From contig NC_010814.1 in the NCBI RefSeq assembly GCF_000020385.1, positions 210,001 to 242,000 of the forward strand: a DNA stretch of 32,000 nt. Direction: 5' to 3'. The notes beneath the pieces are model-generated. The model ran no database searches, had not been told where the DNA came from, and saw only the letters and a list, made by a program, of their open reading frames with translations. This DNA comes from Trichlorobacter lovleyi SZ. GTDB lineage: Bacteria; Desulfobacterota; Desulfuromonadia; Geobacterales; Pseudopelobacteraceae. Made by a program: the position numbers and the translations under genes. How positions within the stretch are numbered: position 1 is the stretch's first letter; each line of letters starts with the position of its first letter. This document shows positions 7,172 to 32,000 of the stretch, piece after piece.

Positions 7172-7179
7172 CCGCATCG

Positions 7180-8959: not shown

Positions 8960-8980
8960 TATTAATAGAGGACACGGCAA

Positions 8981-9256: not shown

Positions 9257-9286
9257 AGATTGCAGTCTCAGCGAGGATGTGGACTC

Positions 9287-9526: not shown

Positions 9527-9569
9527 TAAAAGAAGGATTACGTTGAAAAATACAGCCAAAGACATACCA

Positions 9570-10478: not shown

Positions 10479-10498
10479 TATTTTATGTGGAATGTCTC

Positions 10499-14206: not shown

Positions 14207-14463
14207 CCGACCTGATCCTTGATCATCCAACTCTCACGGCACGTTACTTCTACCCCTGGCCGAATCGGTTTGACGATCCTTTCTACGTGCAGGGGGATGG
14301 TTTCCGTCTGGGGTGTCACTATCGGCACATCTCAGATGACCTGCCGACGATTATCCATTTCCACGGAAACGGAGAGACCGTAGCAGACTACCTTGGCGAC
14401 TTCGAAGATCGGATTACTGGGGCCTGTCAACGAGATTGTGTAAATGACTTATCGGTTTTCTGA
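14203..14463 (+). pseudogene. 5-prime fragment of an alpha/beta hydrolase gene, truncated at about 14416-14420
   Basis: LPTIIHFHGNGETVADYLGDFEDRI is the usual N-terminal strand and oxyanion region of a BAAT or DLH-like hydrolase. After about aa 71 the sequence becomes unrelated (TGACQRDCVNDLSVF*). No nucleophile elbow GxSxG is present. Confidence 0.6.
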
Positions 14464-14560
14464 AGTTCAGTATTATTCCAACGCAAGTTGGACATTCTCT
14501 GTTCTCACGCTATATAATCGGTGTGGTTGGGCAGTCGCTATTTATATGCTTTTATGTCGT

Positions 14561-16081
14561 CTATGCAGTTTCCTTAATTGTTAAGAAATTCGCCACAGAT
14601 GGCTCTTGGGATTGTGTTATTAGCCATTCTAGACGCGTCAGCGCGTGCAAGAAACGCTGATCATGGCTGACTAGCAATAACGCACATGGACAATCGGCCA
14701 GCGCACTTTCCAGACATTCAACCGAAGGCAAATCTAAGTGATTTGTCGGCTCGTCCATGACAATGATGTGCGGCTGCCTCGTCATGCCAAGCGCAAGTAA
14801 TAGTTTCCGAATTTCACCGGGACTGGGTTCACGGCTATCCAGTAAACGATGCGGACGCGATCCTAACCGGCTGATAATAGTCATCACTTGCCCTAATTGC
14901 TCATGCGGCAAAGTTTGCACTTCCGCAAGAATGGCGCGCGATTGCGCCGCGTCAATTTCCTGCGGCAGATAGATCAATTGACCTGCGGGCACGTTGAGTT
15001 GCGGCAGCAGCCAGCGCAACATCGTGCTTTTCCCCGCGCCATTCTGCCCCGTCAGGGCGATGCGATCCGTCGGGCGGATACCTAATTGCGGAAAGGCTAA
15101 CAGTTTTTCAGTATTTAAGGGCAACGTGCCGGATACATGTTGGAACAGCACGTTCCGCTTCGACACCGACCCCGGAAGCCAGATACCGAGCGAATACTCT
15201 TTTTTGACTTTGATCCCCTCCAATTCCTTCTGTGCATGTTCAAACCGACCATCCAACTGTCTCAGAAGTTTCCCTCCGACAATGTCTTTGCCGGTCAAGC
15301 GGGCTGCATCAATTTTCTGCTTGGCATCATGATCGTGTTTTGCAATGCCTTTTTTCGAGCGTTTGTGTTCGTATTGATTGGCTAAATCCCGGCGAAGACC
15401 AGCTTCGCGGCGCAATTCTTTATAGGCCTGTTTCTTCTGGGTATATTCCTTTTTGATGGTCTGAGCATCTATGGCCGCGATTTGCGTGCCTTTTGAATAA
15501 TTGCCGGGCCGTGCTATTACTTCTGGCGGCTCAATAAACAAGCATTGCTGGCATAAGATATCCAGCAATTCACGATCATGGCTGACTAGCAAGCCTACGC
15601 CGGGAAACGACTGTAATGCGCGCAGCAGAATGTTGCGCGCCACAGCATCTACATGATTCGTGGGCTCATCAATTGCGAGCACTTCCGGTTCCAACCATAA
15701 TGCGACTGCGATTTGCGAGCGTTTGCGTTCACCGTGGGATAACGTTGGCCATCGTACCAGCCAATCTTCCTGGATGCCCAACCGACCGCGAATGACTGCC
15801 GCAGTTTTGGCTGTATCCTGTAACAGTTCGGCCAGTTGTGGTGGCGGATCATCGGTGCGTTGGTCACAATAAACTAACCGTGGCGGTGCATCCACATAGC
15901 CGTCATCAGGCAGCAGCAGGCCGGTTGCTAATTTCAGCAGCGTGGTTTTACCAGTACCGTTCGCACCGACAATGCCCGACCAACCCACCGCGAAATGCAG
16001 CGATACATCACGGAACAGCGGTTCATGAGCTGTTTCATAGGTATAACTGATGTGATGGAATTGTAGAAATGGTTGCGACAT
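14561..16081 (-). CDS. ABC-F family ATPase (two ABC domains joined by a charged linker; no TM domain)
   Basis: Start taken at ATG 16081 (GAAGGAAG Shine-Dalgarno upstream): MSQPFLQFHHISY... Domain 1 has GANGTGKTT, LSHGERKR and LAIDEPTNHVD. The linker reads KKEYTQKKQAYKELRREAGLRRDL...DAKQKIDAARLTGKD. Domain 2 has GQNGAGKST, PSPGEIRK and IVMDEPTNHLD. A/T-ending codons (CAA, TTG, AAT, TAT) are visibly more frequent than in neighbouring genes. Confidence 0.85.
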   Translation of the reverse strand: MSQPFLQFHHISYTYETAHEPLFRDVSLHFAVGWSGIVGANGTGKTTLLKLATGLLLPDDGYVDAPPRLVYCDQRTDDPPPQLAELLQDTAKTAAVIRGRLGIQEDWLVRWPTLSHGERKRSQIAVALWLEPEVLAIDEPTNHVDAVARNILLRALQSFPGVGLLVSHDRELLDILCQQCLFIEPPEVIARPGNYSKGTQIAAIDAQTIKKEYTQKKQAYKELRREAGLRRDLANQYEHKRSKKGIAKHDHDAKQKIDAARLTGKDIVGGKLLRQLDGRFEHAQKELEGIKVKKEYSLGIWLPGSVSKRNVLFQHVSGTLPLNTEKLLAFPQLGIRPTDRIALTGQNGAGKSTMLRWLLPQLNVPAGQLIYLPQEIDAAQSRAILAEVQTLPHEQLGQVMTIISRLGSRPHRLLDSREPSPGEIRKLLLALGMTRQPHIIVMDEPTNHLDLPSVECLESALADCPCALLLVSHDQRFLHALTRLEWLITQSQEPSVANFLTIKETA

Positions 16082-16477
16082 GCTTCCTTCTTCAGTCCCG
16101 TTACTCCTTAGTCCCAGGGTGGGTTCAGCTTGCCGCCTCAGCGGCAATAGCTTTTCGCCTTTTCTGAATTTAAGGTTTTATGGGGAAAGTCTGTAACACC
16201 ATGTGATTCCTGACTTCGCAGATTTTTCTGATAATTCTGCTTTTACACTCGTATTTGCCCAACCAGCTTACTTCTCCTGCACAAACCCGGCACAGCAGAT
16301 TCGATTCTCATTCCTCCGCTTGCACCGCCAGCGACCTTCAACTTCAGCGACTCCACTTGCTCCTCCGCGATGCTCCTCGGTTTTCTGTCTTTTCTGTTTT
16401 TCTTCTGTTCAACGGCGAGGGAGATCACCGGTCGGCATTTGGCCCGGTGCATCTATCCTGGTTAGGCCTTTCTTGAA

Positions 16478-17179
16478 CTATCTTCGAGCTTTACCGCTAA
16501 TCCGGGCGATTTCGATTTTGAAGACCTTGGTAATCTTGTCTTTTTGCTCAATGTAGCGTTTGCCCTCTTCGATAAAGTCTGAACAGTATTTCTCCAACAG
16601 CCACAACAAAGCGTGATGTCTCTCGGCGCCATTCACTTCTGAAACTCGGCCAAAGACCACGGCACTTTCGTATTCGGTGCCAAACTTGTCTGGCAGAACC
16701 TTGGTCTTGCCAACCACGCAAAAAGAAACCTTTGCGTTGTGCTCGATATTTTCGAGTTTATGGCCGCTGATGGCACAGTGGAAATAGATTGATCCCTTGT
16801 GAACGTAACTCAACGGCACGCCATAGGGTTGCCCGTCGTTGCCTACCGTCGATAAAATCCCATATTCTGCGGTGTCGAGGATGTCAATTGATTCTTGTGG
16901 GGTTATCTCTCGGTCACTTCTCCGAACTTCCATCATTTGTTCTTCCTTTAGGGGAATAGACTGTCCTCCGTGTGAAGTAAGTACTATCCCGCGGGATGCC
17001 CCTGTTTTCTTGAGCCATCCTTTTTTTTCGAGAGCTTCGAGATGTCGATTCACCCCGGAAGGACTGCTGACACCAAGGTGAGCCGCGATGTCACGCACTG
17101 TCGGTGAGTATCCATGCGTCTGCGTAAAACGGGTAATGAAGTCCAAAACCATTTGTTGCCGTTCAGTAATGGCGATCAC
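16478..17179 (-). CDS. Fusion regulator: LexA-type winged-helix DNA-binding domain + pyridoxamine-5-phosphate-oxidase-like (Nim/Pyridox_ox_2-type) flavin-binding domain
   Basis: The N-terminus (V)[64 protein letters not shown] parallels the E. coli LexA DBD ([54 protein letters not shown]). The C-terminus [75 protein letters not shown] is a typical stand-alone PNPOx-family protein. No S24 peptidase domain or Ala-Gly cleavage site is present. GTG 17179 with GAGGAG 6 nt upstream is preferred. The track start TTG 17242 lies inside the -35 box. Confidence 0.7.
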
Positions 17180-17192
17180 TGTGTTCTCCTCG

Positions 17193-17216
17193 TATAGTGT
17201 ACACCTGTTCACTATA
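17193..17216. promoter_or_regulatory. Candidate operator (inverted repeat) in the divergent regulator / transfer-operon spacer
   Basis: TATAGTG-N10-CACTATA spans 17193-17216. It contains the perfect palindrome GTGTACAC (17197-17204). It also contains GTAC-N4-GTTC (17199-17210), one mismatch from the GAAC-N4-GTTC Cheo-type LexA box. The repeat overlaps the -10 box and the predicted transcription start. Confidence 0.4.
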
Positions 17217-17242
17217 TACTCTCGTTCATATCTTCTTGTCAA
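17213..17242 (-). promoter_or_regulatory. Candidate sigma70 promoter of the LexA-DBD fusion gene
   Basis: The minus strand reads TTGACA (17242-17237), an 18-nt spacer, then TATATA (17218-13), followed by the operator-like palindrome and GAGGAG-N6-GTG. Confidence 0.45.
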
Positions 17243-17289
17243 GACGGTGCCACCTTCCCCCCTACAAGATTATCAGTCAGGAGGAACGA

Positions 17290-17796
17290 ATGTGTCGATT
17301 ACCAGGCATCTGCCTGCTCATGATCAGCCTTGTCAGTTTGCCGATTCAGGCCAAAGCTTTCTGCTTCGAGGAGGCCGGGAGTCAATACGGCATATCGCCA
17401 CAGCTGCTCTGGAGCATTGCCAAGACGGAGAGCAACTTCAACCCCCGTGCGATCAATCGGAACAGTAACGGAACCTACGATTACGGTCTGATGCAGATCA
17501 ATTCAAGTTGGGCCAAGAGACTTGGCAAAACATGGAATGAACTGGGAGAGCCATGCACGAATGTAAAGGTGGGAGCCTGGGTGCTGGCCCAATGTATCCA
17601 GGATTATGGCTACACTTGGCGGGCTGTCGGTTGTTACAACTCGCGCACCCCGTCGAAGGGGGACCGATACGCCGGGAAAGTGTATCGCATCCTCGCTGAG
17701 CATACAAAGCCACAGGCGACGACGCTTATCGCAGCTATCAGCACACCTAGAATCGATTCACCATGGGATGAGGTGTTCGGCAATGCTGTCCGCTGA
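17290..17796 (+). CDS. Lytic transglycosylase (SLT domain), conjugation/T4SS-associated type
   Basis: Start at ATG 17290 (CAGGAGGA Shine-Dalgarno). Signal peptide [21 protein letters not shown]. The catalytic block is [28 protein letters not shown]. Confidence 0.85.
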
Positions 17797-22137: not shown

Positions 22138-23660
22138 GTCTGCCGGTACCACTGCAACAGAAAAGAGGTGTCAGTGTGAAACGAACTGTTATTACCAGAA
22201 CCGCCGCTGCCTGCCTGGCGGCAACAATTGCCTTGAACCCTGTTCTTTCCTGGTCCGGCTGGGTCGATGACTGGGTGCAGCAAAAAAGCTCCACTTCTCC
22301 CAGCTATTATGAAGGATCAAAGCGTGGCTACTACACTGGCGGCAGTTTCTCTGCCAGATGGGCGAACACCGATGACCATCTGTTTACTGCCTCGCTGCCC
22401 AAACTGAAGTCCGGCTGCGGTGGGATCGACATGTTTCTCGGCGGCTTCTCGTTTCTGAATGTGGATTACCTGGTGCAGAAGCTCCAGAACATCCTGTCGG
22501 CAGCTCCGGCCGCAGCCTTTGATATTGCCCTGAAAACCCTGGCACCCCAGGTTGCCGATACCATCAAGAGTCTTGAAGCAATCACCGACCGGTTGAACTC
22601 GCTACAGATGAATGACTGCAAGGCGGCCAAGGCTCTAGTGGCTACTGCTGCCAGTCCGTTTTCATCAGTCATGTCCGACAGCCTGAAGGCAGAGATGAAA
22701 ACAGCCCAGACCGACTTCATGGTATCAAGCGGCGCCAAGGATCTTTATCAGGATGTCAGCAAGCTGTTCGAGAGCGAACAGAAGACCAATGCTGGTAACA
22801 AGCCTGGCGTTCCCGGAACGACCCAGACCTCAGCCACCAGTGCTACCGCCGGTTGCCCGACCGAAGTCCTGCAGGTATTCGGGGACGGGTCGGTCCTGGA
22901 AAACCTGGCCGGCAAGAAAGGAATGAGCAGCGAGTACGTCAAACTGGTGCGCGGCTTCATCGGCGATGTGATCATCCAGAACCCGGCGACGACCGGTACC
23001 ACCTACCAGGCCCAATACATTCCTCCGTGCGACAAGAACAACAGCTTCGATTCCTTTATCAGCGGTTCCGCCCAGGGACGGGATACCGCCGGGGCCTGTG
23101 CCGATATTACCGATGCCAACAAGAACCTGATGGTCTATGTGGCCGGCAAGATGCAGTCCATCGCTACCAAGATCAAATCGAAGACCGCCCTTACCGCCGA
23201 CGAGGAGGCGTTCCTCAAGAGTACGCCGCTGTCGGTCGGGCTGATCCTCAAGAATGCCACTGCCACCAATACCGAGGGTGAGGTCATCGGCAAACTGGCA
23301 GAACTGACCGCCCGGGCCTACGGCTACTACATGCTGCTCGACCTGTTTGGGCGTGCAGTCCAGTTGCAGGAGATGGCCCGCAACATCATGTCTACCCAGA
23401 AGGGTAATAAAGCCGGGGCTTCGCCGGAGACCTGCCAGTTGGCGCTCCTCGGCGAAGGTATGCAGCATATCCAGACGCTTGAGGAAAAGACGCTGCAACT
23501 TCTGAGCGTTGCCCAGCAGAGTTACGCCAATGCAGCTTCTGAGATCAATGCGGTGGAAATGATCGTCCAGAATATGAAGAAATTCGACGACACAGTGTTT
23601 TCGGAATTATCAGACCGGTTCGGCAAAGGAATCGCCATGAGGGCTACCGGCAGAATCTAA
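22134..23660 (+). CDS. traH: F-type conjugal transfer protein TraH-like
   Basis: SPSYYEGSKRGYYTGGSFSARW...LPKLKSGCGGIDMFLGGFSFLN...AFDIALKTLAPQV parallels F TraH (YYSGGS..., SAGCGGIDAFAGSFSHIN). A signal or TM segment lies at the N-terminus. Confidence 0.8.
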   Translation: MSLPVPLQQKRGVSVKRTVITRTAAACLAATIALNPVLSWSGWVDDWVQQKSSTSPSYYEGSKRGYYTGGSFSARWANTDDHLFTASLPKLKSGCGGIDMFLGGFSFLNVDYLVQKLQNILSAAPAAAFDIALKTLAPQVADTIKSLEAITDRLNSLQMNDCKAAKALVATAASPFSSVMSDSLKAEMKTAQTDFMVSSGAKDLYQDVSKLFESEQKTNAGNKPGVPGTTQTSATSATAGCPTEVLQVFGDGSVLENLAGKKGMSSEYVKLVRGFIGDVIIQNPATTGTTYQAQYIPPCDKNNSFDSFISGSAQGRDTAGACADITDANKNLMVYVAGKMQSIATKIKSKTALTADEEAFLKSTPLSVGLILKNATATNTEGEVIGKLAELTARAYGYYMLLDLFGRAVQLQEMARNIMSTQKGNKAGASPETCQLALLGEGMQHIQTLEEKTLQLLSVAQQSYANAASEINAVEMIVQNMKKFDDTVFSELSDRFGKGIAMRATGRI

Positions 23661-23681
23661 CAACAATGAAAGGGAGGAATT

Positions 23682-24083
23682 ATGGCAGACAAGACTAACA
23701 AGGCGGATAAGGGTAACAGCACCCCTCCTGCTTCCAAGAAAGTCGACTGGCAGGCTAGAAAGCTGGAGAATGCGAAACGGGACGATACAAGTGTTGTTTT
23801 CTGTCGCGCTCGTGATACCGGCGACTTCATCAACATTCTCAACTCAAACGATAATCTCGTCTACCAGATGCGGATGAACATGGGGAGGAGGGAGTCCCTG
23901 ACATTTGAGGTAGTGAAGAGCTACATCGACCGGAGCCGGCGAATTAAGGAAGAACTAAATCTCATGAATGCCGAAATGTGCCAGTTGCTCGACTACACGT
24001 ACAAGCCGCCACGGGGATTCGATAACCCTCTCAAAAAGCAGGATAAGCAGGCAGTCCCTGGGGTAGAAACCGGCAAGAAATGA
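23682..24083 (+). CDS. Hypothetical 133-aa basic protein
   Basis: ORF with a GGGAGGA Shine-Dalgarno. No family was recognised. It is the last cistron before the non-coding region. Confidence 0.55.
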   Translation: MADKTNKADKGNSTPPASKKVDWQARKLENAKRDDTSVVFCRARDTGDFINILNSNDNLVYQMRMNMGRRESLTFEVVKSYIDRSRRIKEELNLMNAEMCQLLDYTYKPPRGFDNPLKKQDKQAVPGVETGKK

Positions 24084-24141
24084 TTACTCTGTTTCAGTCG
24101 AACCGGGACGATGCCAAATGGGTCGTCCCGGGTGAATCCTC

Positions 24142-24470
24142 TTGACTTGTAAGAGGAATATCGATAGCGTTTCAGTATTATAGACTCTTTCAAGAGACTC
24201 CGTGCGGCCTTTGAGCCCCGGATAGACTTTTTCGGATAGCCCGAAGAAGAAATGCCCCCGGCAGGGATGAACTACCTGGAAAGACAAGGCCGCAGTTGCC
24301 CCTTTCCGGATGACACCAGGAACGGCTTATGCCTTCCTCGATCAGTCGTATGGGTAATGCGACTTGAATCCAATCTGAAGGTGCGCCCATCAATGTAGCG
24401 CGTGCCTCTGATAACCAATAATCACGAAGAACAGTGACCTATTCTGGCAATGGCCGGAGTGGGTTTTTTG
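24142..24470 (+). ncRNA. Candidate structured non-coding transcript (alternatively oriT or a single-strand promoter region)
   Basis: TTGACT (24142-47), a 17-nt spacer, then TAGCGT (24165-70). At least five local hairpins follow. Examples: CTTTTTCGG/CCGAAGAAG at 24227-24249; GGAAAG/CTTTCC at about 24277-24307; AGGAA(C)GGC/GCCTTCCT at about 24318-24339. A terminal hairpin TCTGGC-aatg-GCCGGA (24443-58) is followed by TTTTTT (24464-69). No convincing ORF lies on either strand. Confidence 0.3.
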
Positions 24471-24528
24471 TTGTTCAAAATCCGCGACAAGCTTTGTAAG
24501 CGGCGGATACTTTCACCACATCCCGACC

Positions 24529-24601
24529 GGGAGACATTTTGTTCTCTCCCTACGGGACAGACATCTGTCTCTTTGCTTCGGGAAAACCACAAGGAGGCAG
24601 T
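24529..24601 (+). promoter_or_regulatory. Two-hairpin leader module A (upstream of ssb)
   Basis: GGGAGA-N10-TCTCCC at 24529-24550. Palindrome GACAGA-ca-TCTGTC at 24556-24569. Proximal stem CTCTTTG/CAAGGAG (24569-75 with 24590-96) pairs the Shine-Dalgarno. Confidence 0.45.
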
Positions 24602-25021
24602 ATGGCAAGTTTGAACCGCGTAGAACTCATCGGCAACCTGGGTCGTGATCCTGAAATCAGGTACACACCAGGAGGCACCGCTGTCGCAAGTTTTTCACTC
24701 GCGACCAGTGAAAAGGTAAAAACCAAAAGTGGCGAATGGGAGGTCCGGACCGAGTGGCACAACATCGTCCTATACGCACGTCTCGCAGAAGTAGCTGGCG
24801 AGTATCTGTCGAAAGGAAAAAGTGTTTATCTCGACGGCAAACTCAAGACCCGCAAATGGCAAGATCGGGACGGTAAAGATCGCTACACAACCGAAATCAT
24901 CGGCGACAAGCTTCTTATGCTGGGTAGTAAAAATGGCAGCATTCCTGACGGGAGTGACGATCAGCCATCAAATAGCCAGGCACATGAGGACATTCCGCAC
25001 GATGACACCGATCCGTTCTAA
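24602..25021 (+). CDS. ssb: Single-stranded DNA-binding protein
   Basis: [37 protein letters not shown]...[48 protein letters not shown] is the OB fold. The acidic tip is DDTDPF. Start at ATG 24602 with an AAGGAGG Shine-Dalgarno. Confidence 0.92.
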
Positions 25022-25051
25022 CAACCAGTAACCACAACTCAACAGTCCTAC

Positions 25052-25131
25052 GGGGAAACATTACCAAGTCCCCAAAGGGATTGGTCTGTCTTCTCTGTCG
25101 GACACAACCCACAGAAAAGGAGACAGACAGA
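25052..25131 (+). promoter_or_regulatory. Two-hairpin leader module B
   Basis: GGGGA-N12-TCCCC at 25052-25073. Proximal stem TCTGTCT+TCTC (25085-95) pairs with GAGA-c-AGACAGA (25120-31). It covers AAGGAG and the first base of the ATG. Confidence 0.5.
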
Positions 25132-26087
25132 TGAACGCACCAGCTCAAATCATTCCCATCAACCCCGCAGCATCATCCCTCACTCACCACGCTGTCAACA
25201 TCAGTGAACTGAAGGCCCAGGTAAACCTGATTCAATACGTCATGCGTGACGTCATGAAATCAGGCGAGCACTACGGCACCATTCCCGGTTGCGGAGACAA
25301 AGCAGTTCTTCTCAAACCGGGCGCCGAAAAGCTCATGCTCACCTTCAGACTGGCAAACGACGTGGATGTGGAAACCATCGACCTGCATCTCGGCCATCGG
25401 GAGTATCGCATCAAGGTGACGCTCTACTCACCGGCAGGCCAGCGTCTCGGTACAGGTGTCGGTTCATGTTCGACCATGGAAAGCAAGTATCGTTTCCGTG
25501 TCGGGCCAGTTGAACTGACGAATAAGCCGGTACCGAGGGAGTACTGGGATCTTCGCAAGGAGAACCCGGCATTGGCTCAGGAGATCATTGGTGGACGCGG
25601 CTTCAGCGCAAAAAAGGATGACAGCTGCAACTGGAAAATCGCTCGCCAGGGAGAAAAGGTCGAGCACGATAATCCGGCAGATTTTTATAACACGTGTCTC
25701 AAGATGGCCAAGAAGCGGGGATTAGTGGATGCAGTACTCACCTCAACCGCCGCCTCGGACATCTTCACCCAAGACATCGAGGAAGATCCTGACCTTTATG
25801 GACAGACGGAACACAACGGGGGAAACAGTGCCGGCACTACCAGCACTACCTCCGGGACTTCGCAGGGTCACAAACCGGACAGCACCCCATCATCCCACGG
25901 AGCCGGACCAGTTTCGACTTCCGAGATCATCGGGTATCTGACGGCTAAGGGAATCAGAATGGAACTCTCCGCAGATGAATCGGAGATCTCCGCCTTCCCG
26001 GACTTCAACGACACCTCAGCCCGCCAATGGCTGAAAGATCACGGTTTCAAATGGGACGGCAAGGGCAAATGCTGGCAGTACCGGTAG
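25131..26087 (+). CDS. Hypothetical 318-aa protein; possible single-strand annealing (Rad52/ERF-like) protein with Ser/Thr-rich linker and C-terminal GFKW mini-domain
   Basis: Coding status is clear. The function is weakly supported by synteny, since the gene lies between ssb and a Cas4-like nuclease. A KMAKKRGLVDAVLTSTAASDIFTQDIEED segment resembles the conserved C-terminal helix of annealases. The C-terminus reads WLKDHGFKWDGKGKCWQYR. Confidence 0.35.
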   Translation: MNAPAQIIPINPAASSLTHHAVNISELKAQVNLIQYVMRDVMKSGEHYGTIPGCGDKAVLLKPGAEKLMLTFRLANDVDVETIDLHLGHREYRIKVTLYSPAGQRLGTGVGSCSTMESKYRFRVGPVELTNKPVPREYWDLRKENPALAQEIIGGRGFSAKKDDSCNWKIARQGEKVEHDNPADFYNTCLKMAKKRGLVDAVLTSTAASDIFTQDIEEDPDLYGQTEHNGGNSAGTTSTTSGTSQGHKPDSTPSSHGAGPVSTSEIIGYLTAKGIRMELSADESEISAFPDFNDTSARQWLKDHGFKWDGKGKCWQYR

Positions 26088-26132
26088 CACCTGACGTTAC
26101 AGACTGAACCTCACTCACAACCAACCTCAGCA

Positions 26133-26211
26133 GGGAGACAACGACTTTCTCCCTACCGGGGGTGTCTTGTCTCCTCTGCCGGGTACAACCCACAGATAAG
26201 GAGACAAGATC
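26133..26211 (+). promoter_or_regulatory. Two-hairpin leader module C
   Basis: GGGAGA-N9-TCTCCC at 26133-26153. A perfect 11-bp stem TCTTGTCTCCT (26165-75) / AGGAGACAAGA (26199-209) sequesters the Shine-Dalgarno. The loop shares ACAACCCACAGA with module B. Confidence 0.55.
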
Positions 26212-26376
26212 ATGACTACCCACATCATCAAACACGTAACAATCAAAGGCTGTCAGATACCGGTCTATGCGCCCGTTAAGGAGCGACAGATCAGCATCGA
26301 TGTCACCAGAATCATTGCCGGCGTTATTTTCGGTTCCCTGCTCACCGCAGTCGGAACCCTGCCGTTTCTGATTTGA
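26212..26376 (+). CDS. Small 54-aa protein with C-terminal TM helix (hypothetical)
   Basis: Manually found: MTTHIIKHVTIKGCQIPVYAPVKERQISIDVTRIIAGVIFGSLLTAVGTLPFLI. It is preceded by AAGGAGACA and followed 12 nt later by the next gene with the same AAGGAGACAG Shine-Dalgarno word. Confidence 0.5.
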   Translation: MTTHIIKHVTIKGCQIPVYAPVKERQISIDVTRIIAGVIFGSLLTAVGTLPFLI

Positions 26377-26388
26377 AAGGAGACAGCC

Positions 26389-27363
26389 ATGAGCAAACTC
26401 GCTGCATTTCTGGGACGGGCTATACCGACCCATCAAAAGAAACAATCATCACATCTTGGTGACCGAACTGTGTACGTCGGAGCCTCCGACATTGCCGGCT
26501 GCCCACGTAAAGCGGCTCTCGGCAAACAATGCCCGTCCAGTCACGACATCTCGACACTCCTGCGCTTTTCCCGTGGCCATGCTGCGCAAGCCATGTATGC
26601 CGAGTTCTTCAAGACTGGCGGCGCCCTCTTCGAGGAAGAAGTCGAAGTACGTCACACGGACATCCCTGAAATCAGGTGTCACATTGACTTTCTGTTCTAT
26701 GCGAACCGGCAGACTAAAAGGCTGCACATCGTGGAGATGAAGTCGACCGATGGCATCCCCGATGAACCTTACGCATCCTGGGTGGATCAGCTGCATGTCC
26801 AGATGGGCCTGCTGCAACTCACCCTCGATCCGGAAGTGCAAATCGGCGGATCAATTCTAGTGGTTGACCTCAATGCTGGAACATACCGGGAATTCAATAA
26901 CTATGCACCCAACAAGCTGGTGTTTAATCAGCTTATGGAAAAAGCTCAGCACATCCTTTCGGCAACGCGAGGCGAGTGTGCACCTAAAACGGAACCAGGC
27001 ATTCTCTGCGGTTATTGCACGTTTCGCCAGGATTGCCCTTCGCATGTGGCTGATATGGAACTTCCTCCGGAAATCCATCAAGCCAGCAAAGCATACCTGG
27101 AATTGAACGAGCAGAAAAAAGCTCTCGACACTCGTCTGGAAGTTCTGAAAAACGACATCCTCACTTTTGTGAATGGTGCGTATAAAGGGGCTTCGGACGG
27201 TATCCTTGTTAATGTCACATCAGTGTCAGACTCGGTAATCGTCGACGGCAAGAAGCTGAAGAACTCGTATCCGGATATCTATGATCAAGTCACGAAACCG
27301 AAATCTGGCTTTCTGAAGCTTGAAATCAAACCATTCATGCCGCTCGCAGCACAGGCGGCCTGA
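26389..27363 (+). CDS. PD-(D/E)XK nuclease, Cas4/RecB-like with four-Cys cluster
   Basis: An N-terminal Cys lies in SDIAGCPRKAAL. The catalytic motif is HIDFLF...LHIVEMKS (D...ExK). The C-terminal cluster is CGYCTFRQDCPSH (C-x2-C-x5-C). Confidence 0.75.
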   Translation: MSKLAAFLGRAIPTHQKKQSSHLGDRTVYVGASDIAGCPRKAALGKQCPSSHDISTLLRFSRGHAAQAMYAEFFKTGGALFEEEVEVRHTDIPEIRCHIDFLFYANRQTKRLHIVEMKSTDGIPDEPYASWVDQLHVQMGLLQLTLDPEVQIGGSILVVDLNAGTYREFNNYAPNKLVFNQLMEKAQHILSATRGECAPKTEPGILCGYCTFRQDCPSHVADMELPPEIHQASKAYLELNEQKKALDTRLEVLKNDILTFVNGAYKGASDGILVNVTSVSDSVIVDGKKLKNSYPDIYDQVTKPKSGFLKLEIKPFMPLAAQAA

Positions 27364-27376
27364 TCCAACCCCACAA

Positions 27377-27447
27377 GGGGGCGTTACGCTCCCCATGGGA
27401 AATCTCCATTCTTGGAGGCGTGCGCCCCCATTGAAAGGAGATTCCTG
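27377..27447 (+). promoter_or_regulatory. Two-hairpin leader module D
   Basis: GGGGGCG-tta-CGCTCCC within 27377-27394. Proximal stem GGAAATCTCC (27398-407) / GGAGATTCC (27437-45) sequesters the Shine-Dalgarno. An alternative pairing exists between GGGGGCG (27377-83) and CGCCCCC (27422-28). Confidence 0.45.
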
Positions 27448-27648
27448 ATGAAAATCTATCGTACCGGCACGTTGCCCCCTGACCTTAAATCCTTCTCCTG
27501 TGAGAAAAGGCATGAAGACCTGAAAGAGGTCCTGCATGCCATTGTCTCACTGTTGCTCATCGCGGCGATGTTTTTCATGTTCATGATTGCCGCAGCAGCA
27601 CCTGAACCCCAGGTTTATCCTGTGGGGTGGGAGGAGGTGCGAGGATGA
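27448..27648 (+). CDS. Small membrane protein (66 aa, hypothetical)
   Basis: Start at ATG 27448 after AAAGGAG. The central helix is AIVSLLLIAAMFFMFMIAAAA. The stop overlaps the next ATG. Confidence 0.5.
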   Translation: MKIYRTGTLPPDLKSFSCEKRHEDLKEVLHAIVSLLLIAAMFFMFMIAAAAPEPQVYPVGWEEVRG

Positions 27649-27914
27649 CGGAGCCAACCATTGCCATCTATACGGAAGAGGAGACTGGCCCGTCTGATGC
27701 TGCTGTGAATGAGGTCAACCTCTCGTTGCACGGAGCCAACCGGGTTCTGGAACGTGACATCCCTCTGGAAGCTCTCGAAGGTGTTCGTCATCTTCTGCCT
27801 CTCCTCAACACGAAACCACTCAAATTCAGGTACAAGGGGGTTTTCGTCGTGGCCCGCCTGGTAAATGGTTCACCAAGAATCATCACCGCCTGGCGCCTAC
27901 TTCCCCCCTCGTAG
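27645..27914 (+). CDS. Hypothetical 89-aa protein
   Basis: ATGA overlap at 27645-27648 with a GGAGGAGG Shine-Dalgarno upstream. No family was recognised. Confidence 0.5.
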   Translation: MTEPTIAIYTEEETGPSDAAVNEVNLSLHGANRVLERDIPLEALEGVRHLLPLLNTKPLKFRYKGVFVVARLVNGSPRIITAWRLLPPS

Positions 27915-28013
27915 ATGTCTTAGTAGGACAGCGAAATTAACCATCACCCTTGGCGGGATGCATGACATCTCCGCAAAGGAGAGGTATCCCGTCGTCAATA
28001 CAAGGAGGCATCC

Positions 28014-28427
28014 ATGAGTCCTAAAATTCCACGACCCAAGGCTGTTCCCGGCTTCACCATCGAACGCCGGTCTGCCTGCGGGAAAATTTACACTACTGTC
28101 ACCCTGTCCCCGACAACAGCTGCACCAATGGAAGTCTTCATACGCTTCGGCAAGGCCGGAGGTTGTGGTTCTGCCATGGCCGATGGTATCGCTCGCCTGG
28201 TCTCCTACGGTCTCCGTTCGGGACTGGAGCCAACCGATGCGTTCAAGGCTCTCACCGGCATAGGTTGTCATCTCGGGGCCAATACCTGCCTCAATTGCGT
28301 TGCCGAATCCATAGGCATCGTTTTGGAGCATCTGAAAACAGGGCGTGATCTCAACGACCTCATCGAGGAAGCTGACTTCGCGGCAATTAACCAAATCGGA
28401 CAAGGAGCTGATCACCATGAAATATAG
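28014..28427 (+). CDS. Stand-alone TSCPD-domain protein
   Basis: The Cys-containing blocks ACGKIYTTV, EVFIRFGKAGGCGSAMADGIARLVS, GIGC and NTCLNCVAESIG match the TSCPD domain. That domain is otherwise found at the C-terminus of class II ribonucleotide reductases (by recollection). Confidence 0.65.
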   Translation: MSPKIPRPKAVPGFTIERRSACGKIYTTVTLSPTTAAPMEVFIRFGKAGGCGSAMADGIARLVSYGLRSGLEPTDAFKALTGIGCHLGANTCLNCVAESIGIVLEHLKTGRDLNDLIEEADFAAINQIGQGADHHEI

Positions 28428-29340
28428 CATCAAGGACATATTCAATATTCCTGTGAAAGAGAGTCTCTGCGTGGAAGGTCGGCCTCAGTCCGACAACCCA
28501 TTTATCCCTGAAGTTGACAGCGACTATGTGTTCAGGAAGGAAATCCTGTCGGATGTACTTTCCTGGTACATGATGGGCGCCAACGACGGCCTGTACCTGA
28601 CCGGTCCGACCGGCAGCGGCAAGTCTTCGATTGTCTTGCAGACCGCTGCCCGGCTCAATATTCCGGTCATGGTCGTCACAGGGCACAGCAGACTCGAAAC
28701 CCCGGAACTTGTGGGGCATCACGTAATCGTCAACAACTCGATGGAGTACGTCTACGGACCGCTCGCCATGGCCATGAAAGAAGGTCACTGGTTCCTGCTG
28801 GACGAGATCGACTTGCTCGATCCCGCCACTGCAGCAGGTTTGAACGGCATCGTAGAAGGAAGACCCCTCACCATTCCGGAAAAGGGTGGTGAAGTCATCA
28901 AGCCGGCACCGGGCTTTCGCTTCATTGCGACAGCCAACACCGCCGGCAGCGGTGATCGCTCAGGTCTCTATCAAGGGACTTTACGGCAGAACGGCGCATT
29001 TCTGGATCGTTTCTGGATGGTTGAAGTCGACTATCCTGACGAAGTCCAGGAAAGACAGATTCTGGCCAAAGCCATGCCCAGCCTGGCTGATACGGTCAGG
29101 GAAGCACTGGTATCCTACGCCAACGAAATCCGCAAACTCTTCATCAAAGGGGAAATAGAAGTCACCTTCTCCACCAGAACCCTCGTCAGATGGGCGAAGC
29201 TTGTGTATCTCTTCCGCCCGGCATCTGCTGAAGGGAAAAACCCGATCATCCATGCTCTTGATCGTGCTCTCGGGTACCGAGCAGAGCCGGAAAGCCGCGA
29301 GGCGTTGCACGAACTGGCGCAACGCGTCTTCGGCGGATAG
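28417..29340 (+). CDS. CobS-like / MoxR-type AAA+ ATPase
   Basis: Start at ATG 28417. Walker A is LTGPTGSGKSS and Walker B is FLLDEIDL. The segment FRFIATANTAGSGDRSGLYQGTLRQNGAFLDRFWMVEVDYPDEVQERQIL closely follows the aerobic cobaltochelatase CobS pattern. Confidence 0.85.
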   Translation: MKYSIKDIFNIPVKESLCVEGRPQSDNPFIPEVDSDYVFRKEILSDVLSWYMMGANDGLYLTGPTGSGKSSIVLQTAARLNIPVMVVTGHSRLETPELVGHHVIVNNSMEYVYGPLAMAMKEGHWFLLDEIDLLDPATAAGLNGIVEGRPLTIPEKGGEVIKPAPGFRFIATANTAGSGDRSGLYQGTLRQNGAFLDRFWMVEVDYPDEVQERQILAKAMPSLADTVREALVSYANEIRKLFIKGEIEVTFSTRTLVRWAKLVYLFRPASAEGKNPIIHALDRALGYRAEPESREALHELAQRVFGG

Positions 29341-29350
29341 GGGGTGCTAC

Positions 29351-29683
29351 ATGGCATTACGACAGCATCTCCATCTCCAATGCAACACTACGGCTGGCGG
29401 CAAGTTCTGGATCGCCCAGATTCATGACGATCCGCCGCGGGTTACGGTCAATTGGGGGCCTACGCGCAGCCAGGGGCAGACGAAGTCTTATGACGTCAAC
29501 TCAATGTCCGAGGCATTCACGTTCGTTTCCAAGAAGAAGAAGGAAAAGCTGGCCAAAGGGTACTACGAAGTTGCTTCATCGCCGCCTCGTGAACCTGTCC
29601 AGCCAACACCCCGGAAACAGACAGACAAAACAATCATGAAGGATCTCATGTCCGGTGCAAACACCAAGGACTGGTTCTTCTAA
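29351..29683 (+). CDS. WGR-domain-like small protein
   Basis: GGKFWIAQIHDDPPRVTVNWGPTRSQGQTKSYDVNSMSEAFTFVSKKKKEKLAKGYYEV follows the WGR pattern (KFY..., WGRIG..GQ, ...K..KGY) with WGP replacing WGR. Start at ATG 29351. Confidence 0.6.
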   Translation: MALRQHLHLQCNTTAGGKFWIAQIHDDPPRVTVNWGPTRSQGQTKSYDVNSMSEAFTFVSKKKKEKLAKGYYEVASSPPREPVQPTPRKQTDKTIMKDLMSGANTKDWFF

Positions 29684-29693
29684 CGCCCTTCAG

Positions 29694-29760
29694 GGGAGGC
29701 CTTCTCCCTGTTGGGGGCCTCCCTTGATCACACCATCATACTGATCAAAGGAGAAAGAAC
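29694..29760 (+). promoter_or_regulatory. Two-hairpin leader module F
   Basis: GGGAGGCC-N14-GGCCTCCC at 29694-29723. TTGATCA-N11-TGATCAA (29724-29748) abuts the AAGGAG Shine-Dalgarno at 29748-53. Confidence 0.4.
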
Positions 29761-30645
29761 ATGAACGAAATACTTTCAAAGCTGGTAGTTGTGTCCCTGT
29801 CCATTTCACTCTGGACTGGCCGGAAGAAACTCTCGCCGGAAGACCTTGGGCTCGACTTTTCCAAACTCCCTCCCGAAAAACTGGCCACGCTCGGTAGCAA
29901 GAAGATCTGCGACCCGGAGAAACTTGCCGTATTCAGCGCCCTGAAGCGTCGTGCCGAACGGCAGTGTGAAGCGGTAGGAGTCAGATTCCTCGGTGGCTAT
30001 GCCATACCGGAGGATAAGGCCGACGAGGTGATGAAGATCCTCGACGGTGTTCGGGATGAGTTTGAGAAGGAGAAGCAGGAATTTTTGTCGGAGTACGACC
30101 GCAGTCTGAGGGAATGGATTGATGCGAACCCCGAATGGGCAGCCATCATCGAAAAAGGCGTAGAACCAGCGTCAACAGCGGCACGCCGTCTGGGCTTCGC
30201 AGTCCAGGCGTTCAAGGTCAAGAACATCGACGGACTGGACAAGGGGCTGAACGAACATGCCAGTACCCTGTCAGAACGGCTGATCTTTGAAATCAATCAA
30301 CAAGCCAGGCAAGCCTGGGAGGAGTCGTACAAGGGACGCCCTTCTGTAACCCGGAAAGCGCTACGCCCGATCAAGTCCATGCTCGACAAACTGCGTGGTC
30401 TTGAGTTCCTTTCTCCCTACCTGCTCACTCTGGCAGTACAGGTTGAAGACGTGTTGGCCTCATTACCAAAAAGCGGTCCCATCGAAGGACGGAATCTCAC
30501 CTCACTTATCGGGATATTGCATGTCCTCGGCGATTTGCCGCTGGATGAAGTCCCGGCAGAGGAAGAAGAGGATGTTGTTGAAAACATCCTTCCCGAGACC
30601 AGAACCGCTGAGCCGGTAAGCCTGCCCAGCGAATGGTTCTTTTAG
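29761..30645 (+). CDS. DUF3150-like protein
   Basis: The N-terminus KLVVVSLSISLWTGRKKLSPEDLG...LPPEKLATLGSKKICDPEKLAVFSALKRRAERQCEAVGVRFLGGYAIPE matches my recollection of DUF3150 proteins, which accompany CobS/CobT-like pairs on plasmids and ICEs. Confidence 0.55.
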   Translation: MNEILSKLVVVSLSISLWTGRKKLSPEDLGLDFSKLPPEKLATLGSKKICDPEKLAVFSALKRRAERQCEAVGVRFLGGYAIPEDKADEVMKILDGVRDEFEKEKQEFLSEYDRSLREWIDANPEWAAIIEKGVEPASTAARRLGFAVQAFKVKNIDGLDKGLNEHASTLSERLIFEINQQARQAWEESYKGRPSVTRKALRPIKSMLDKLRGLEFLSPYLLTLAVQVEDVLASLPKSGPIEGRNLTSLIGILHVLGDLPLDEVPAEEEEDVVENILPETRTAEPVSLPSEWFF

Positions 30646-30654
30646 GAGGCCGCC

Positions 30655-32000
30655 ATGAAACACACCACACTGCCCCTGGTTGCCAAGGCACTCGGGGAAA
30701 AATACGACATTCAGGTACAGATCTCCGGCGACCAGGCGTACACCAACGGACGGATTATCAATCTTCCGTCCCTGCCAGACAGCAAAGAGGCGGCACTGCT
30801 TGCCCGTGGCTATATCGACCACGAGAGCGCCCACATCCGGTTCACGGATTTCAGCGTTAAAAGTAGTACCTCCATGCTCAAGTGCCTGACAAACATTCTT
30901 GAAGACATCCGTATCGAGAAGATGATGGGAGCGAAGTATCCCGGGTGCCGGTCTAATTTGAAAGATCTGGCCGAGCACCTGAAGCAACAGGGGAGTTTCA
31001 CACCGTCACTTCAAGACCCACCGCAGACCCTACTGGCATGGCTATGCGCCAGGGGACGGCTAACCTTGAATCAGGACTTCAGTGACATCCTTGCCATGAC
31101 CAGCAGTACGGTCAACGGGTTTCTCGGCACCGGATACAAAAAGTTGCTGGACCTGACCGAGAGAATTCCAAATCTCGTCTCCACCAGGGACTCACAATCC
31201 ATGGCGGAGGAGATCCTGCGGTTGATCCGTGATGAAAAACACCAACAGGAGCAGGAACGGAAACGTCAGGAAGACCAGAAGGCGAAAACCACCTGCAGCT
31301 CTGATGGGTCAAAACCTGATGGCAGTTCCAATGATCAGGAAGAATACAATCAGACATCCGGCACTGACCAGCAGTCAGGAAAACCGAAACAGGATACCGA
31401 TGATTCATCACCCGATGGTGATAACACCGGTACTGCAGCAGGCGATGATTCTCAGTCCCAAGCTGCAGGCAATCCGTCGCCTCCTGTTCCCAAGAGTGGT
31501 TCCAGTGGGGAATTGGGTGGTAATCCCGAGGCTCTTCAGGAAATGCTCGATTGTGATCCTGGCGGGTTTGGCGATGTCGGTGAAATTCTCAAACATGAAC
31601 TGATAACTGAGGGTGAAACAGTCGGCAATCGGGGTGGCGTTCTGCTTCCACCGGAGGCCTCTCTGCGCACCTTTCCCATCGATATCCATGAAACCAGACG
31701 ACATACGGCGCTGCTCAGAGCCCGGCTTAGCGGATTAATCCAGGCAAGCCGACTGAGGAGACGTCATGCACGCCGCACCGGTAGCAAGATAGATAACCGG
31801 GTGGTGCATCGTCTTGCATTAAACGACACCAGGCTGTTTCTGCACCAAGAGGAGAAAACGGAGGTCAATACCGCCATCATGATCCTCGTGGACAGGAGTG
31901 GGAGCATGCAACACCAGAAAATCGAGGTTGCCTCTAAAACTGCATATGTTGTGGCAGAGGCCCTTGATTCAATCCCTGGATGTTTTGCTGCCGTTGCCGC
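30655..32000 (+). CDS. CobT-like protein: N-terminal HExxH region, acidic/Ser-rich linker, C-terminal vWA domain (3-prime end beyond window)
   Basis: Manually translated; it is absent from the ORF track because it is open at the window edge. Sequence: MKHTTLPLVAKALGEKYDIQVQISGDQAYTNGRIINLPSLPDSKEAALLARGYIDHESAHIRFTDF... followed by a low-complexity linker DGSSNDQEEYNQTSGTDQQSGKPKQDTDDSSPDGDN. Then ...AIMILVDRSGSM, the start of the MIDAS DxSxS motif. An AGGAGG Shine-Dalgarno lies upstream. Confidence 0.75.
   Translation, partial: MKHTTLPLVAKALGEKYDIQVQISGDQAYTNGRIINLPSLPDSKEAALLARGYIDHESAHIRFTDFSVKSSTSMLKCLTNILEDIRIEKMMGAKYPGCRSNLKDLAEHLKQQGSFTPSLQDPPQTLLAWLCARGRLTLNQDFSDILAMTSSTVNGFLGTGYKKLLDLTERIPNLVSTRDSQSMAEEILRLIRDEKHQQEQERKRQEDQKAKTTCSSDGSKPDGSSNDQEEYNQTSGTDQQSGKPKQDTDDSSPDGDNTGTAAGDDSQSQAAGNPSPPVPKSGSSGELGGNPEALQEMLDCDPGGFGDVGEILKHELITEGETVGNRGGVLLPPEASLRTFPIDIHETRRHTALLRARLSGLIQASRLRRRHARRTGSKIDNRVVHRLALNDTRLFLHQEEKTEVNTAIMILVDRSGSMQHQKIEVASKTAYVVAEALDSIPGCFAAVA

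Follow-up and report, generated by a model that had tools for sequence, protein, structure and literature searches.

A CobS/CobT-like AAA+ and vWA cassette of a Geobacteraceae integrative conjugative element is a divergent version of a proposed IncC and SXT/R391 establishment module

Background

The closest described counterpart of the genes considered here is the pair vcrx089-vcrx090 of the IncC plasmid pVCR94, which includes an ATPase with AAA_5 and CbbQ_C domains and promotes evasion of type I restriction-modification (R-M) (Roy et al. 2020, PMC7498323). Deletion of both genes lowers transfer into a type I R-M-positive Vibrio cholerae recipient 25-fold; the defect is complemented from the recipient, not from the donor, and is gone in an hsdR deletion (PMC7498323). 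On the same plasmid ssb-bet-exo repair CRISPR-Cas3 breaks, and these three genes share one transcript with vcrx089-090 that was detected with a reverse-transcription (RT) primer at the 3' end of vcrx094 (PMC7498323), which places vcrx094 on this transcript as well. The paper gives vcrx094 no domain; by position it is the DUF3150 gene of the string, and vcrx095 has the position of the vWA gene. Deletion of vcrx089-090 was also reported to increase restriction by EcoBI and EcoKI 424- to 906-fold (Dimitriu et al. 2024, PMC11602122), and the pair has its own AntiDefenseFinder entry, 'vcrx089_090' (PMC11724313). Here we analyze a cassette of five genes (TSCPD, CobS-like AAA+, WGR, DUF3150 and CobT-like HExxH/vWA) in a stretch of 32,000 nucleotides (nt) from Trichlorobacter lovleyi SZ (NC_010814.1, positions 210,001-242,000). 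This stretch is called the window below, and all positions are window positions.

A second group of comparators consists of AAA+ ATPases that work with a vWA partner. In the cobaltochelatase CobNST, the N-terminal domain of CobT (CobT_N) has a peptidase M48C-like fold and binds the small domain of CobS, the CobT shaft that precedes the vWA domain enters the nucleotide-bound CobS ring, and CobT_N and the MIDAS face hold CobN between them (bioRxiv 10.64898/2026.07.21.739949). The same AAA+ clade includes the NorQ-NorD, CbbQ-CbbO and Rea1/midasin systems, and MoxR-vWA pairs of this kind are expected to share one logic, in which a client is captured by the MIDAS and then remodelled at the expense of ATP. 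A pair of a MoxR AAA+ protein and a metallopeptidase-vWA protein is also found in group 2.2 jumbo phages, where a role in virion assembly was predicted (Iyer et al. 2021, PMC7824862).

Results and discussion

Relation of the cassette to the IncC and SXT/R391 string

Comparison with these systems identifies the cassette as the Geobacteraceae version, carried by an integrative conjugative element (ICE), of a widespread module that probably serves establishment and evasion of host defence, and the same module is present in IncC/IncA plasmids and SXT/R391 ICEs. The AAA+ protein is a homologue of IncC Vcrx089 and R391 Orf70; it is 48% identical to the Vcrx089 homologue of the IncC plasmid pSN254 over its full length (317 aligned columns, E 4e-105). 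The DUF3150 and vWA proteins are 34% and 31% identical, respectively, to their pSN254 counterparts (BLASTP). Other shared features are a small protein with an aromatic C-terminal tail encoded directly downstream of the ATPase, the genes for SSB, an annealing protein and an exonuclease on the same strand, the presence of DUF3150 and HExxH/vWA genes in the same string, and a carrier that is a conjugative element of the MOBH/MPF_F type. There are also clear differences. The 302-aa (amino acid) Vcrx090 of IncC has no detectable similarity to the 110-aa WGR protein that follows the ATPase in the window; the places of the IncC Bet and lambda-Exo are taken in the window by a RecE/Cas4-like nuclease and a 318-aa protein that is unclassified; and the AAA+ gene of the window is preceded by a TSCPD gene that overlaps it, in a Geobacteraceae host. 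Thus, what was known already is the Vcrx089-090 anti-restriction pair within a conserved IncC/SXT string, of which the window holds a divergent version.

A first-pass annotation of the window stated that no experimental function was known for this gene combination. This has to be revised for the ATPase and its partner, given the phenotype published for the 48% identical homologue, and it holds for the mechanism and for the roles of the DUF3150, vWA, WGR and TSCPD proteins. Of the three roles that were offered (DNA entry and establishment, anti-defence, defence), the evidence favours establishment and anti-defence.

Gene content of the cassette

The five genes are co-directional and tightly packed (Table 1). 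Their coordinates, overlap and gaps were borne out by our analysis, the Walker A and B motifs, CobS-type segment, HESAH motif and MIDAS start lie where the first reading had placed them, and all five domain assignments were recovered by Pfam search. The TSCPD protein matches Pfam TSCPD (E 2.8e-12); the AAA+ protein, AAA_5 (1.4e-22) and CbbQ_C (6.2e-16); the third protein, WGR (1.4e-8, above the gathering score); and the fourth, DUF3150 (2.1e-101). The fifth matches both the CobT N-terminal domain (1.2e-14) and the vWA domain CobT_C (2.6e-8). Its gene runs off the end of the window. The Logan contig L003 carries the same genes, and there the CobT-like protein is 572 aa long at full length, with a complete vWA domain and with residues 1-448 identical to the window protein.

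Table 1. Positions of the cassette genes, their motifs and the adjacent recombination genes in the window
Feature	Position	Strand	Remarks
TSCPD gene	28014-28427	+	137 aa, stand-alone
AAA+ gene	28417-29340	+	307 aa; overlaps TSCPD gene by 11 nt
WGR gene	29351-29683	+	110 aa; 10-nt gap after AAA+ gene
DUF3150 gene	29761-30645	+	294 aa; 77-nt gap after WGR gene
CobT-like gene	30655-32000	+	9-nt gap after DUF3150 gene; 448 codons, open at window end
Walker A, GPTGSGKS	28603-28626	+	AAA+ protein
Walker B, FLLDEID	28792-28812	+	AAA+ protein
FIATANT, GLYQGT, FLDRF	28921-29013	+	AAA+ protein; CobS-type segment
HESAH (H56, E57, H60)	30820-30834	+	CobT-like protein; putative zinc-peptidase motif
EDIRIE (holds E83 and E88)	30901-30918	+	CobT-like protein; downstream of HESAH
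MIDAS DxSxS start, DRSGS	31891-31905	+	CobT-like protein
C-terminal tail DWFF	29669-29680	+	WGR protein; matches DUF3150 tail
C-terminal tail EWFF	30631-30642	+	DUF3150 protein; matches WGR-protein tail
ssb	24539-25021	+	SSB 4.1e-36
318-aa protein (p318)	25131-26087	+	single-strand-annealing-protein position; phrog_10048 1.3e-50 (function unknown)
RecE/Cas4-like PD-(D/E)XK exonuclease	26389-27363	+	PDDEXK_1; phrog_434 RecE-like exonuclease 5e-18

Conserved core and its distribution

A first search for loci used a DUF3150 alignment of seven sequences that lacked conserved blocks; a search with an alignment of four sequences succeeded. The string AAA+ - (X) - DUF3150 - vWA, where X denotes the slot right after the AAA+ gene, is present at every locus with enough flanking sequence (80 genome loci and eight annotated plasmid loci), and these loci come from Thermodesulfobacteriota, Gamma- and Betaproteobacteria, and Lentisphaerota. 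Several arrangements of this core were observed. The SXT/R391 ICEs have ssb-bet-exo-AAA+-X(256 aa)-DUF3150-(146 aa)-vWA, with a Toprim gene further on, and the IncC plasmids have AAA+-Vcrx090-ssb-bet-exo-DUF3150-vWA. The X gene is missing in Desulfovibrio, Mailhella and Lentisphaera (AAA+-DUF3150-vWA), and the Geobacterales have the core plus TSCPD. All five families occur together again on the distant plasmid pSD of Geobacter anodireducens, where the AAA+ protein is 32% identical to that of the window. Thus, the five-family cassette of the first-pass annotation does recur outside this genome, but the conserved unit is AAA+ - (X) - DUF3150 - HExxH/vWA, with TSCPD confined to Geobacterales.

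The distribution of the module is restricted to plasmids and ICEs. Relatives of DUF3150 were found on 1176 PLSDB plasmids, 986 of them conjugative, and relatives of the CobT-like and AAA+ proteins in 1110 and 1272 PLSDB records, respectively, with genus breakdowns nearly the same as that of DUF3150. In IMG/VR, DUF3150 is absent, and among 50,697 phage records its sole match was AB571791.1, a Salmonella Typhimurium record that we take to be a plasmid. The AAA+/CobT-like pair without DUF3150 does occur in phages and phage-plasmids. These phage 'CobS/CobT' genes (phrog_249, phrog_1576, phrog_459) share the two-protein architecture of the cassette and give strong profile matches to it (8e-67, the AAA+ match to phrog_249, and 3e-40); they differ in having no DUF3150 and in their predicted role, which is virion assembly, not DNA entry.

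The AAA+ and CobT-like proteins

The AAA+ protein is a CobS-like ATPase of the MoxR clade with a CbbQ_C lid. Its matches in the Protein Data Bank (PDB) include CobS (9ujv, 4.5e-28) and NorQ (2.7e-18), as well as CbbQ and the AAA modules of midasin. The CobT-like protein consists of an M48C-like N-domain with an intact HExxH motif, a disordered acidic linker rich in Ser, Asp and Gln, a conserved 'shaft' segment and the vWA/MIDAS domain. A profile of 56 homologues of this protein matches solved CobT (9uka_G, 2.6e-32) across the N-domain, the segment before the vWA domain (the shaft site according to the preprint) and the vWA domain. Both subunits are therefore homologous to those of the CobS-CobT structures (PDB 9ujv, 9uka series), and they are alike in architecture: an AAA+ protein with an extra C-terminal helical lid, paired with an M48C-like/linker/shaft/vWA partner. 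The assignment of an M48-like fold to the N-domain is inferred: the domain is homologous to CobT_N at the profile level, and the crystal structure of CobT_N is M48C-like. A model of the CobT-like protein (pLDDT 79.9, residues 216-287 disordered) was compared with known structures by Foldseek, where the vWA domain dominates the result for the whole model; the closest match is the vWA domain of NorD in NorQD complexes (2.4e-10, TM 0.65 on the target), and the Rea1/MDN1 MIDAS domains are also found.

The sequence alignments point to two intact sites in the CobT-like protein. H56, E57, H60, E83 and E88 are invariant in the 56 diverse homologues and in seven plasmid homologues. The MIDAS is complete, with S415, S417, T481 and D509 invariant and D413 at least 90% conserved among the 56 homologues; T481 and D509 are encoded past the window end. 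Thus a MoxR-clade AAA+ protein is paired here with a vWA protein that has a full set of MIDAS residues. In genuine CobT the HExxH motif is deleted ('GD--SMALR' aligns to 'DHESAHIR'), and the vWA partners NorD, CbbO and midasin are without a peptidase-like HExxH domain. As judged from these alignments, the vWA protein is a CobT homologue retaining an invariant HExxH...E that genuine CobT has lost, a point newly noted here, and the version on mobile elements resembles a CobST motor that has no CobN and whose peptidase site is predicted to be still functional. On pSD of G. anodireducens the CobT-like protein is encoded by two genes (a 349-aa N-domain and a 289-aa vWA protein; L093:11285-13215), the split being at the disordered linker.

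The comparison also indicates how these proteins should not be labelled. Against the CobS equivalog model TIGR01650 (cut-off 558.55 bits) the AAA+ protein scores 94.9 bits (E 5e-27), and the CobT-like protein scores 35.8 bits against the CobT equivalog TIGR01651 (cut-off 759.05 bits). No cob/cbi gene is present in the 32-kb window or among the genes called for about 8 kb past the CobT-like gene in L003, and neither CobN nor cob/cbi genes were found in the eight annotated plasmid loci. CobNST thus differs from the module in its client CobN and in its cob neighbourhood, and in place of the client the module has the tail-bearing WGR and DUF3150 proteins. The clients of the other MoxR-vWA pairs (nitric oxide reductase, Rubisco, pre-60S factors) are absent here as well. 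The warning that a chelatase annotation would mislead is therefore well founded. This corrects a recurrent mis-annotation on plasmids, ICEs and phages, where such genes are called 'cobaltochelatase CobS/CobT' or 'porphyrin biosynthesis', labels that can be mistaken for auxiliary metabolic genes.

The WGR, DUF3150 and TSCPD proteins

In the WGR protein a disordered linker lies between the WGR core and the C-terminal tail; the protein has no PARP, ligase or other effector domain. Its gene is in the X slot, the position of Vcrx090 in IncC. The Pfam WGR match is significant for X in the window, on pGSUB1 (where the protein is annotated as WGR) and on pSD (1.7e-10), and WGR is the top sub-threshold match for the X proteins in six of eight further loci, including SXT/R391 (E 0.06-0.09, below threshold). 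No Vcrx090 homologue was found directly downstream of the AAA+ gene by BLASTP, and comparison of the Vcrx090 family profile with the WGR-type X profile by hhalign gave a probability of 0.2%. The X protein of SXT has weak pairwise similarity to Vcrx090 (BLASTP 1e-4), and an earlier mixed alignment of X proteins (hhalign E 0.004, probability 8%), together with a motif resemblance seen by eye, had hinted at a WGR-like Vcrx090. We dropped the idea that Vcrx090 is a divergent WGR protein in view of the cleaner profile comparison, which was negative. The WGR protein is taken here as equivalent to Vcrx090 by position and by the logic of its tail; homology is not claimed. Sensing of DNA breaks by WGR, as in PARP-type proteins, is a putative role by analogy.

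In the DUF3150 protein a helical core that includes a small sheet and spans about 255 aa is followed by an acidic disordered C-terminal extension. Its AlphaFold2 model has a pLDDT of 88.2 and a pTM of 0.79, with low confidence for the last ~35 residues. Foldseek found no fold match for this model in the PDB (best E 0.88, TM <0.25), sequence comparison with the PDB returned noise only, and no PHROGs family corresponds to the protein. Literature searches on DUF3150 or on CobS, CobT and WGR together returned nothing relevant.

The TSCPD protein is a lineage-specific accessory outside the conserved core. Its sequence resembles the C-terminal part of class II ribonucleotide reductase (alignment to NF006417, positions 597-704), and Cys22, Cys51, Cys85 and Cys92 are invariant in the alignment of 16 Geobacterales homologues; its role is probably in metal or redox binding. 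TSCPD was seen in Geobacterales loci only, and relatives are present on just six plasmids in PLSDB. In a second Geobacter sub-clade the gene lies up to ~95 nt away from the AAA+ gene, and in pSD, L020 and L021 its overlap, of 4 nt, is with the gene for a DnaG-type primase instead of the AAA+ gene. This primase is 430-482 aa long (L093:7001-8796, L020:11704-13454, L021:13612-15365), and the pSD copy comprises a zinc ribbon, DNAG_N and Toprim. The ~95-nt separation and the coupling to primase rule out TSCPD as an obligate partner of the AAA+ protein.

Shared aromatic C-terminal tails

Within each element, the X and DUF3150 proteins share one short aromatic C-terminal tail, and this tail varies across elements. 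Besides DWFF and EWFF in the window, the X and DUF3150 tails are, respectively, SNWF and VNWF on pGSUB1, DHFF and DYFF in IncC, GWVF and GWVF in Marinobacter, SWFW and VWFW in the second Geobacter clade, NYYF and SFYF in SXT/R391, GVWF and VVWF in P. fluorescens, and VWDF and VFDF on pSD. For 13 lineages (represented by the window, L001, L002, L009-L012, L018, L023, L036, L047, L050 and L093, which were picked by eye and are not strictly independent), the last four residues of X and DUF3150 are identical at 32 of 52 positions. Shuffled pairings gave 14.5 ± 2.3 identities, none of 200,000 permutations reached 32, and control pairings with the tails of the AAA+ or vWA proteins produced no signal. 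Only two of 255 six-frame open reading frames (ORFs) in the window end in WFF, namely the WGR and DUF3150 proteins. Locus by locus, the tail is confined to X and DUF3150 among all six-frame ORFs, with the exception of SXT/R391, where Exo, X and DUF3150 end alike (..SSFYF, ..QNYYF and ..NSFYF). In IncC the C-termini of Bet and Exo are aromatic (..GSYY, ..TFYW), as is that of a 107-aa ORF (L002:15992-16315). The segment that precedes the tail in DUF3150 is acidic and of low confidence in the model. This co-variation is newly observed in this work.

The simplest reading is that the tail-bearing proteins would dock through their tails on one common receptor. The tail changes from element to element in both proteins together, which makes it probable that the element itself encodes the receptor; the candidates are the vWA/MIDAS face, the M48-like groove and the AAA+ lid. 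The possibility that the tail is a signal for translocation by the type IV secretion system was set aside, because vcrx089-090 are complemented from the recipient and not from the donor.

Proposed mechanism

Our preferred reading, to which we give a probability of about 0.55, is that the cassette is an establishment and anti-restriction module in which a CobST-like AAA+/MIDAS motor, possibly proteolytic, would act with the WGR and DUF3150 proteins as tail-docked adaptors or clients. By homology to CobST, the CobS-like AAA+ protein would assemble into a hexameric ring, the M48-like N-domain of the CobT-like protein would bind the small CbbQ_C domain of this ring, and the 'shaft' would go into the AAA+ pore. 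A client sitting between these two domains could then be presented with the vWA/MIDAS face and the intact HExxH site. The place of CobN would be filled by the X-slot WGR protein and by DUF3150, docked via their shared aromatic tail, so that DUF3150 and the vWA protein would work with the AAA+/X pair, and the WGR protein may target the machine to DNA. In the recipient, the machine would act on incoming DNA by remodelling, stripping or cleaving restriction complexes, above all those of type I. The outcome would be comparable to ClpXP-dependent alleviation of EcoKI restriction or to the ArdC metalloprotease of R388, which provide a functional analogy only (PMC7213743, PMC11109961). In these systems recipient-side escape from type I restriction is achieved via a metalloprotease domain or by AAA+-driven removal of HsdR. 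The differences are that ArdC is a single protein with a single-stranded-DNA-binding domain and that ClpXP is a host protease, and we claim no sequence relationship to either.

A more ambitious form of this proposal is tentative, and we regard it as doubtful: the AAA+ protein, the X adaptor (WGR or Vcrx090), DUF3150 and the HExxH/vWA protein may form one ATP-driven, MIDAS-guided protease machine, in which the element-specific tail serves as an 'address tag' and which destroys or evicts restriction complexes. If so, this would supply a mechanism for the unexplained anti-restriction activity of Vcrx089-090 in the IncC and SXT/R391 resistance elements, and it would imply that an active AAA+-coupled peptidase was either the ancestor or a descendant of the cobaltochelatase motor.

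Several points weigh against the establishment and anti-restriction reading. The phenotype was published for IncC only, and none for this element or its Geobacter relatives. The validated partner Vcrx090 has no detectable homologue in the window by BLASTP or profile comparison, and the equivalence of the WGR protein to it is one of position and tail only. No phenotype was reported for vcrx094 or vcrx095, and a transposon sequencing (TnSeq) screen of IncC flagged only vcrx089-093 (PMC7498323). However, this screen compared Cas+ and Cas- recipients that both had a type I system (PMC7498323), so that it was blind to a role specific to R-M. The lineages of Desulfovibrio, Mailhella and Lentisphaera that have no X gene indicate that X is dispensable for the activity of the core. 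Finally, the peptidase activity, the tail receptor and the DNA binding of WGR are predictions.

An AAA+-based anti-restriction function would widen the host range of the elements that carry it, and the same core is kept across phyla. The module also provides testable handles: an HExxH motif on a CobT-like scaffold, a complete MIDAS, two partners with co-varying tails, and a WGR protein in the Vcrx090 slot.

Alternative explanations

The alternative that survives best, which we consider unlikely, is that the module is an accessory of recombination by SSB, the annealing protein and the exonuclease. Its task would be the loading, regulation or recycling of Exo and the annealing protein where DNA is broken or incoming, and any anti-restriction effect would be a side effect of improved repair of double-strand breaks. 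In almost all lineages there is tight linkage of the module to ssb, to bet or p318, and to genes for lambda-Exo or PD-(D/E)XK nucleases. The tail is shared by Exo in SXT/R391, and the Bet and Exo tails of IncC are aromatic, but the exonuclease and p318 of the window have no WFF tail. Deletion of vcrx093 (exo) sensitizes to EcoBI 426-fold, compared with 424-fold for deletion of vcrx089-090 (PMC11602122). The R-M spectra of these deletions nevertheless differ, since EcoKI sensitivity (906-fold) results only from the loss of vcrx089-090, whereas EcoAI and EcoRII sensitivity results only from the loss of vcrx093 (PMC11602122). The authors of the IncC study noted that the function of vcrx089-090 appeared to depend in part on ssb/bet/exo (PMC7498323). 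In the absence of CRISPR targeting, however, the two genes in the recipient complement fully, and the dependence of the defect on hsdR points to the restriction enzyme, not to repair (PMC7498323).

A role as an establishment chaperone that helps the incoming single strand to be replicated or primed is less probable still; in this role the module would assemble or activate the DnaG/Toprim primase of the element or some other part of the replisome. In pSD, L020 and L021 there is translational coupling between TSCPD and the DnaG-type primase, and in most other lineages, among them SXT/R391, Marinobacter, Hydrogenophaga, Xanthomonas, Ahniella and Geoalkalibacter, a Toprim/DnaG-like gene is found one to a few genes past the vWA gene. 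L003 encodes a DnaG zinc-ribbon protein and RadC downstream of the module. However, no Toprim gene is adjacent to the module in the IncC stretch examined, and the plasmid deleted for vcrx089-090 transfers normally to restriction-deficient or isogenic recipients, which does not indicate a replication defect (PMC7498323).

A defence or exclusion system, in which the WGR protein would sense foreign DNA and the module would act against phages or competing elements, is improbable. MoxR-vWA pairs are known in conflict systems (PMC7159879), and PADLOC contains WGR models, but the best matches of the five proteins in PADLOC-DB v2 (mad8, 5.5e-4; IetA, 1.4e-3; WGR_XIII, 9.8e-3) are weak, partial P-loop or WGR matches, of which none is significant. 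This speaks against the defence role offered in the first-pass annotation. Moreover, the module is located in the conserved conjugative backbone beside establishment genes, rather than in variable defence hotspots, and its tested homologue aids DNA entry rather than blocking it (PMC7498323, PMC11602122).

The least probable alternative is genuine metal insertion or cofactor maturation of the CobNST, NorQD or CbbQO type, perhaps with TSCPD or a ribonucleotide reductase being metallated: the homology to CobS/CobT and NorQ/NorD, the nature of TSCPD as a Cys-rich domain of class II ribonucleotide reductases, and the presence of a class III reductase gene after the module on pGSUB1 (L001:12536-14704) and of yfaE downstream on IncC pSN254 (L002:14918-15142) are outweighed by the lack of a CobN, NorB or Rubisco-type client and of cob genes, by equivalog scores about 6- to 20-fold below the cut-offs, by an HExxH motif kept unlike in CobT, by the absence of TSCPD from nearly all lineages that carry the core, and by the restriction to plasmids and ICEs. 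The reductase-related genes near the module on these two unrelated plasmids may be a coincidence or may serve nucleotide supply during establishment.

The carrier element and neighbouring genes

The cassette sits on an ICE of Geobacteraceae of the MOBH/MPF_F type. Upstream in the window are genes for a TraD-like coupling protein (T4CP), an HD-domain protein in the relaxase position (MOBH relaxase-like), TraF and TraH, so that the placement of the cassette in the ssb-proximal region of a conjugative element, as proposed at first, is supported. The DNA at 23601-32000 is 97.7% identical to a 685-kb contig of Trichlorobacter thiogenes and 94.6% identical to a contig of Geomobilimonas luticola, which assigns the element to Geobacteraceae. 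A megablast search with 24500-32000 found no match in PLSDB; plasmid relatives were found at the protein level alone. No tRNA gene is present in the window.

The ssb, p318 and exonuclease genes (Table 1) correspond in function to ssb-bet-exo of the hde (host defence evasion) operon in IncC and SXT, and the order ssb, annealing protein, exonuclease is kept across loci. The 318-aa protein has no Pfam match and phrog_10048 as its sole PHROG match, but it is kept in all Geobacter-clade loci; it may represent an unclassified family of annealing proteins. Between the ssb region and the window end (23600-32000, 8.4 kb) no sigma-70-like promoter was found, with 4.8 expected, and the + strand has no terminator-like hairpin of more than seven pairs. 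The absence of both fits one long operon, as in IncC. The lack of a sigma-70-like match may reflect a single-strand promoter or another form of non-canonical early expression. Just upstream of ssb, at 24436-24465, there is a strong 13-bp hairpin followed by a T-run.

Two small ORFs lie between the exonuclease and TSCPD genes (27412-27914). They encode 78 and 95 aa as the longest ORFs and 66 and 89 aa in the L003 gene calls, and they have no Pfam or PHROG match. Both are conserved in Geobacter-clade loci, and the second is also present in pSD (50% identity). Downstream of the cassette, L003 has two small ORFs, a gene for a 1118-aa DUF6094 and ResIII protein, and the genes for the DnaG zinc-ribbon protein and RadC. 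The 1118-aa helicase-like protein (L003:13624-16980, L093:1493-4855) is kept near the module in Geobacterales elements at 63-74% identity and is annotated on pSD as 'type III restriction endonuclease subunit R'; it may be another establishment or anti-restriction protein. The left half of the window (1-17500), which may belong to the ICE as cargo or defence genes or to the chromosome, encodes an FGE-sulfatase-like protein, a MacB/FtsX-type ABC transporter pair, a non-specific endonuclease, an Exonuclease VII large-subunit-like protein, an RNase T-like exonuclease, a GNAT acetyltransferase, a nitroreductase, a RecD2-type helicase and, on the minus strand, a two-domain ABC ATPase.

C-terminal AA ends were observed in nine of 17 distinct PD-(D/E)XK exonucleases and in seven of 42 CobT-like proteins, against a background of 15 of 533 other ORFs and 84 of 5642 six-frame ORFs. 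The window exonuclease ends in ..PLAAQAA (27343-27360), which is ssrA-like, and the window CobT-like protein ends in ..KLTR; the vWA proteins of L001, L002, L010-L012 and L036 are among those with ssrA-like '..AA' ends. Such ends may act as a degron of the ClpXP type and thereby limit the lifetime of these early proteins.

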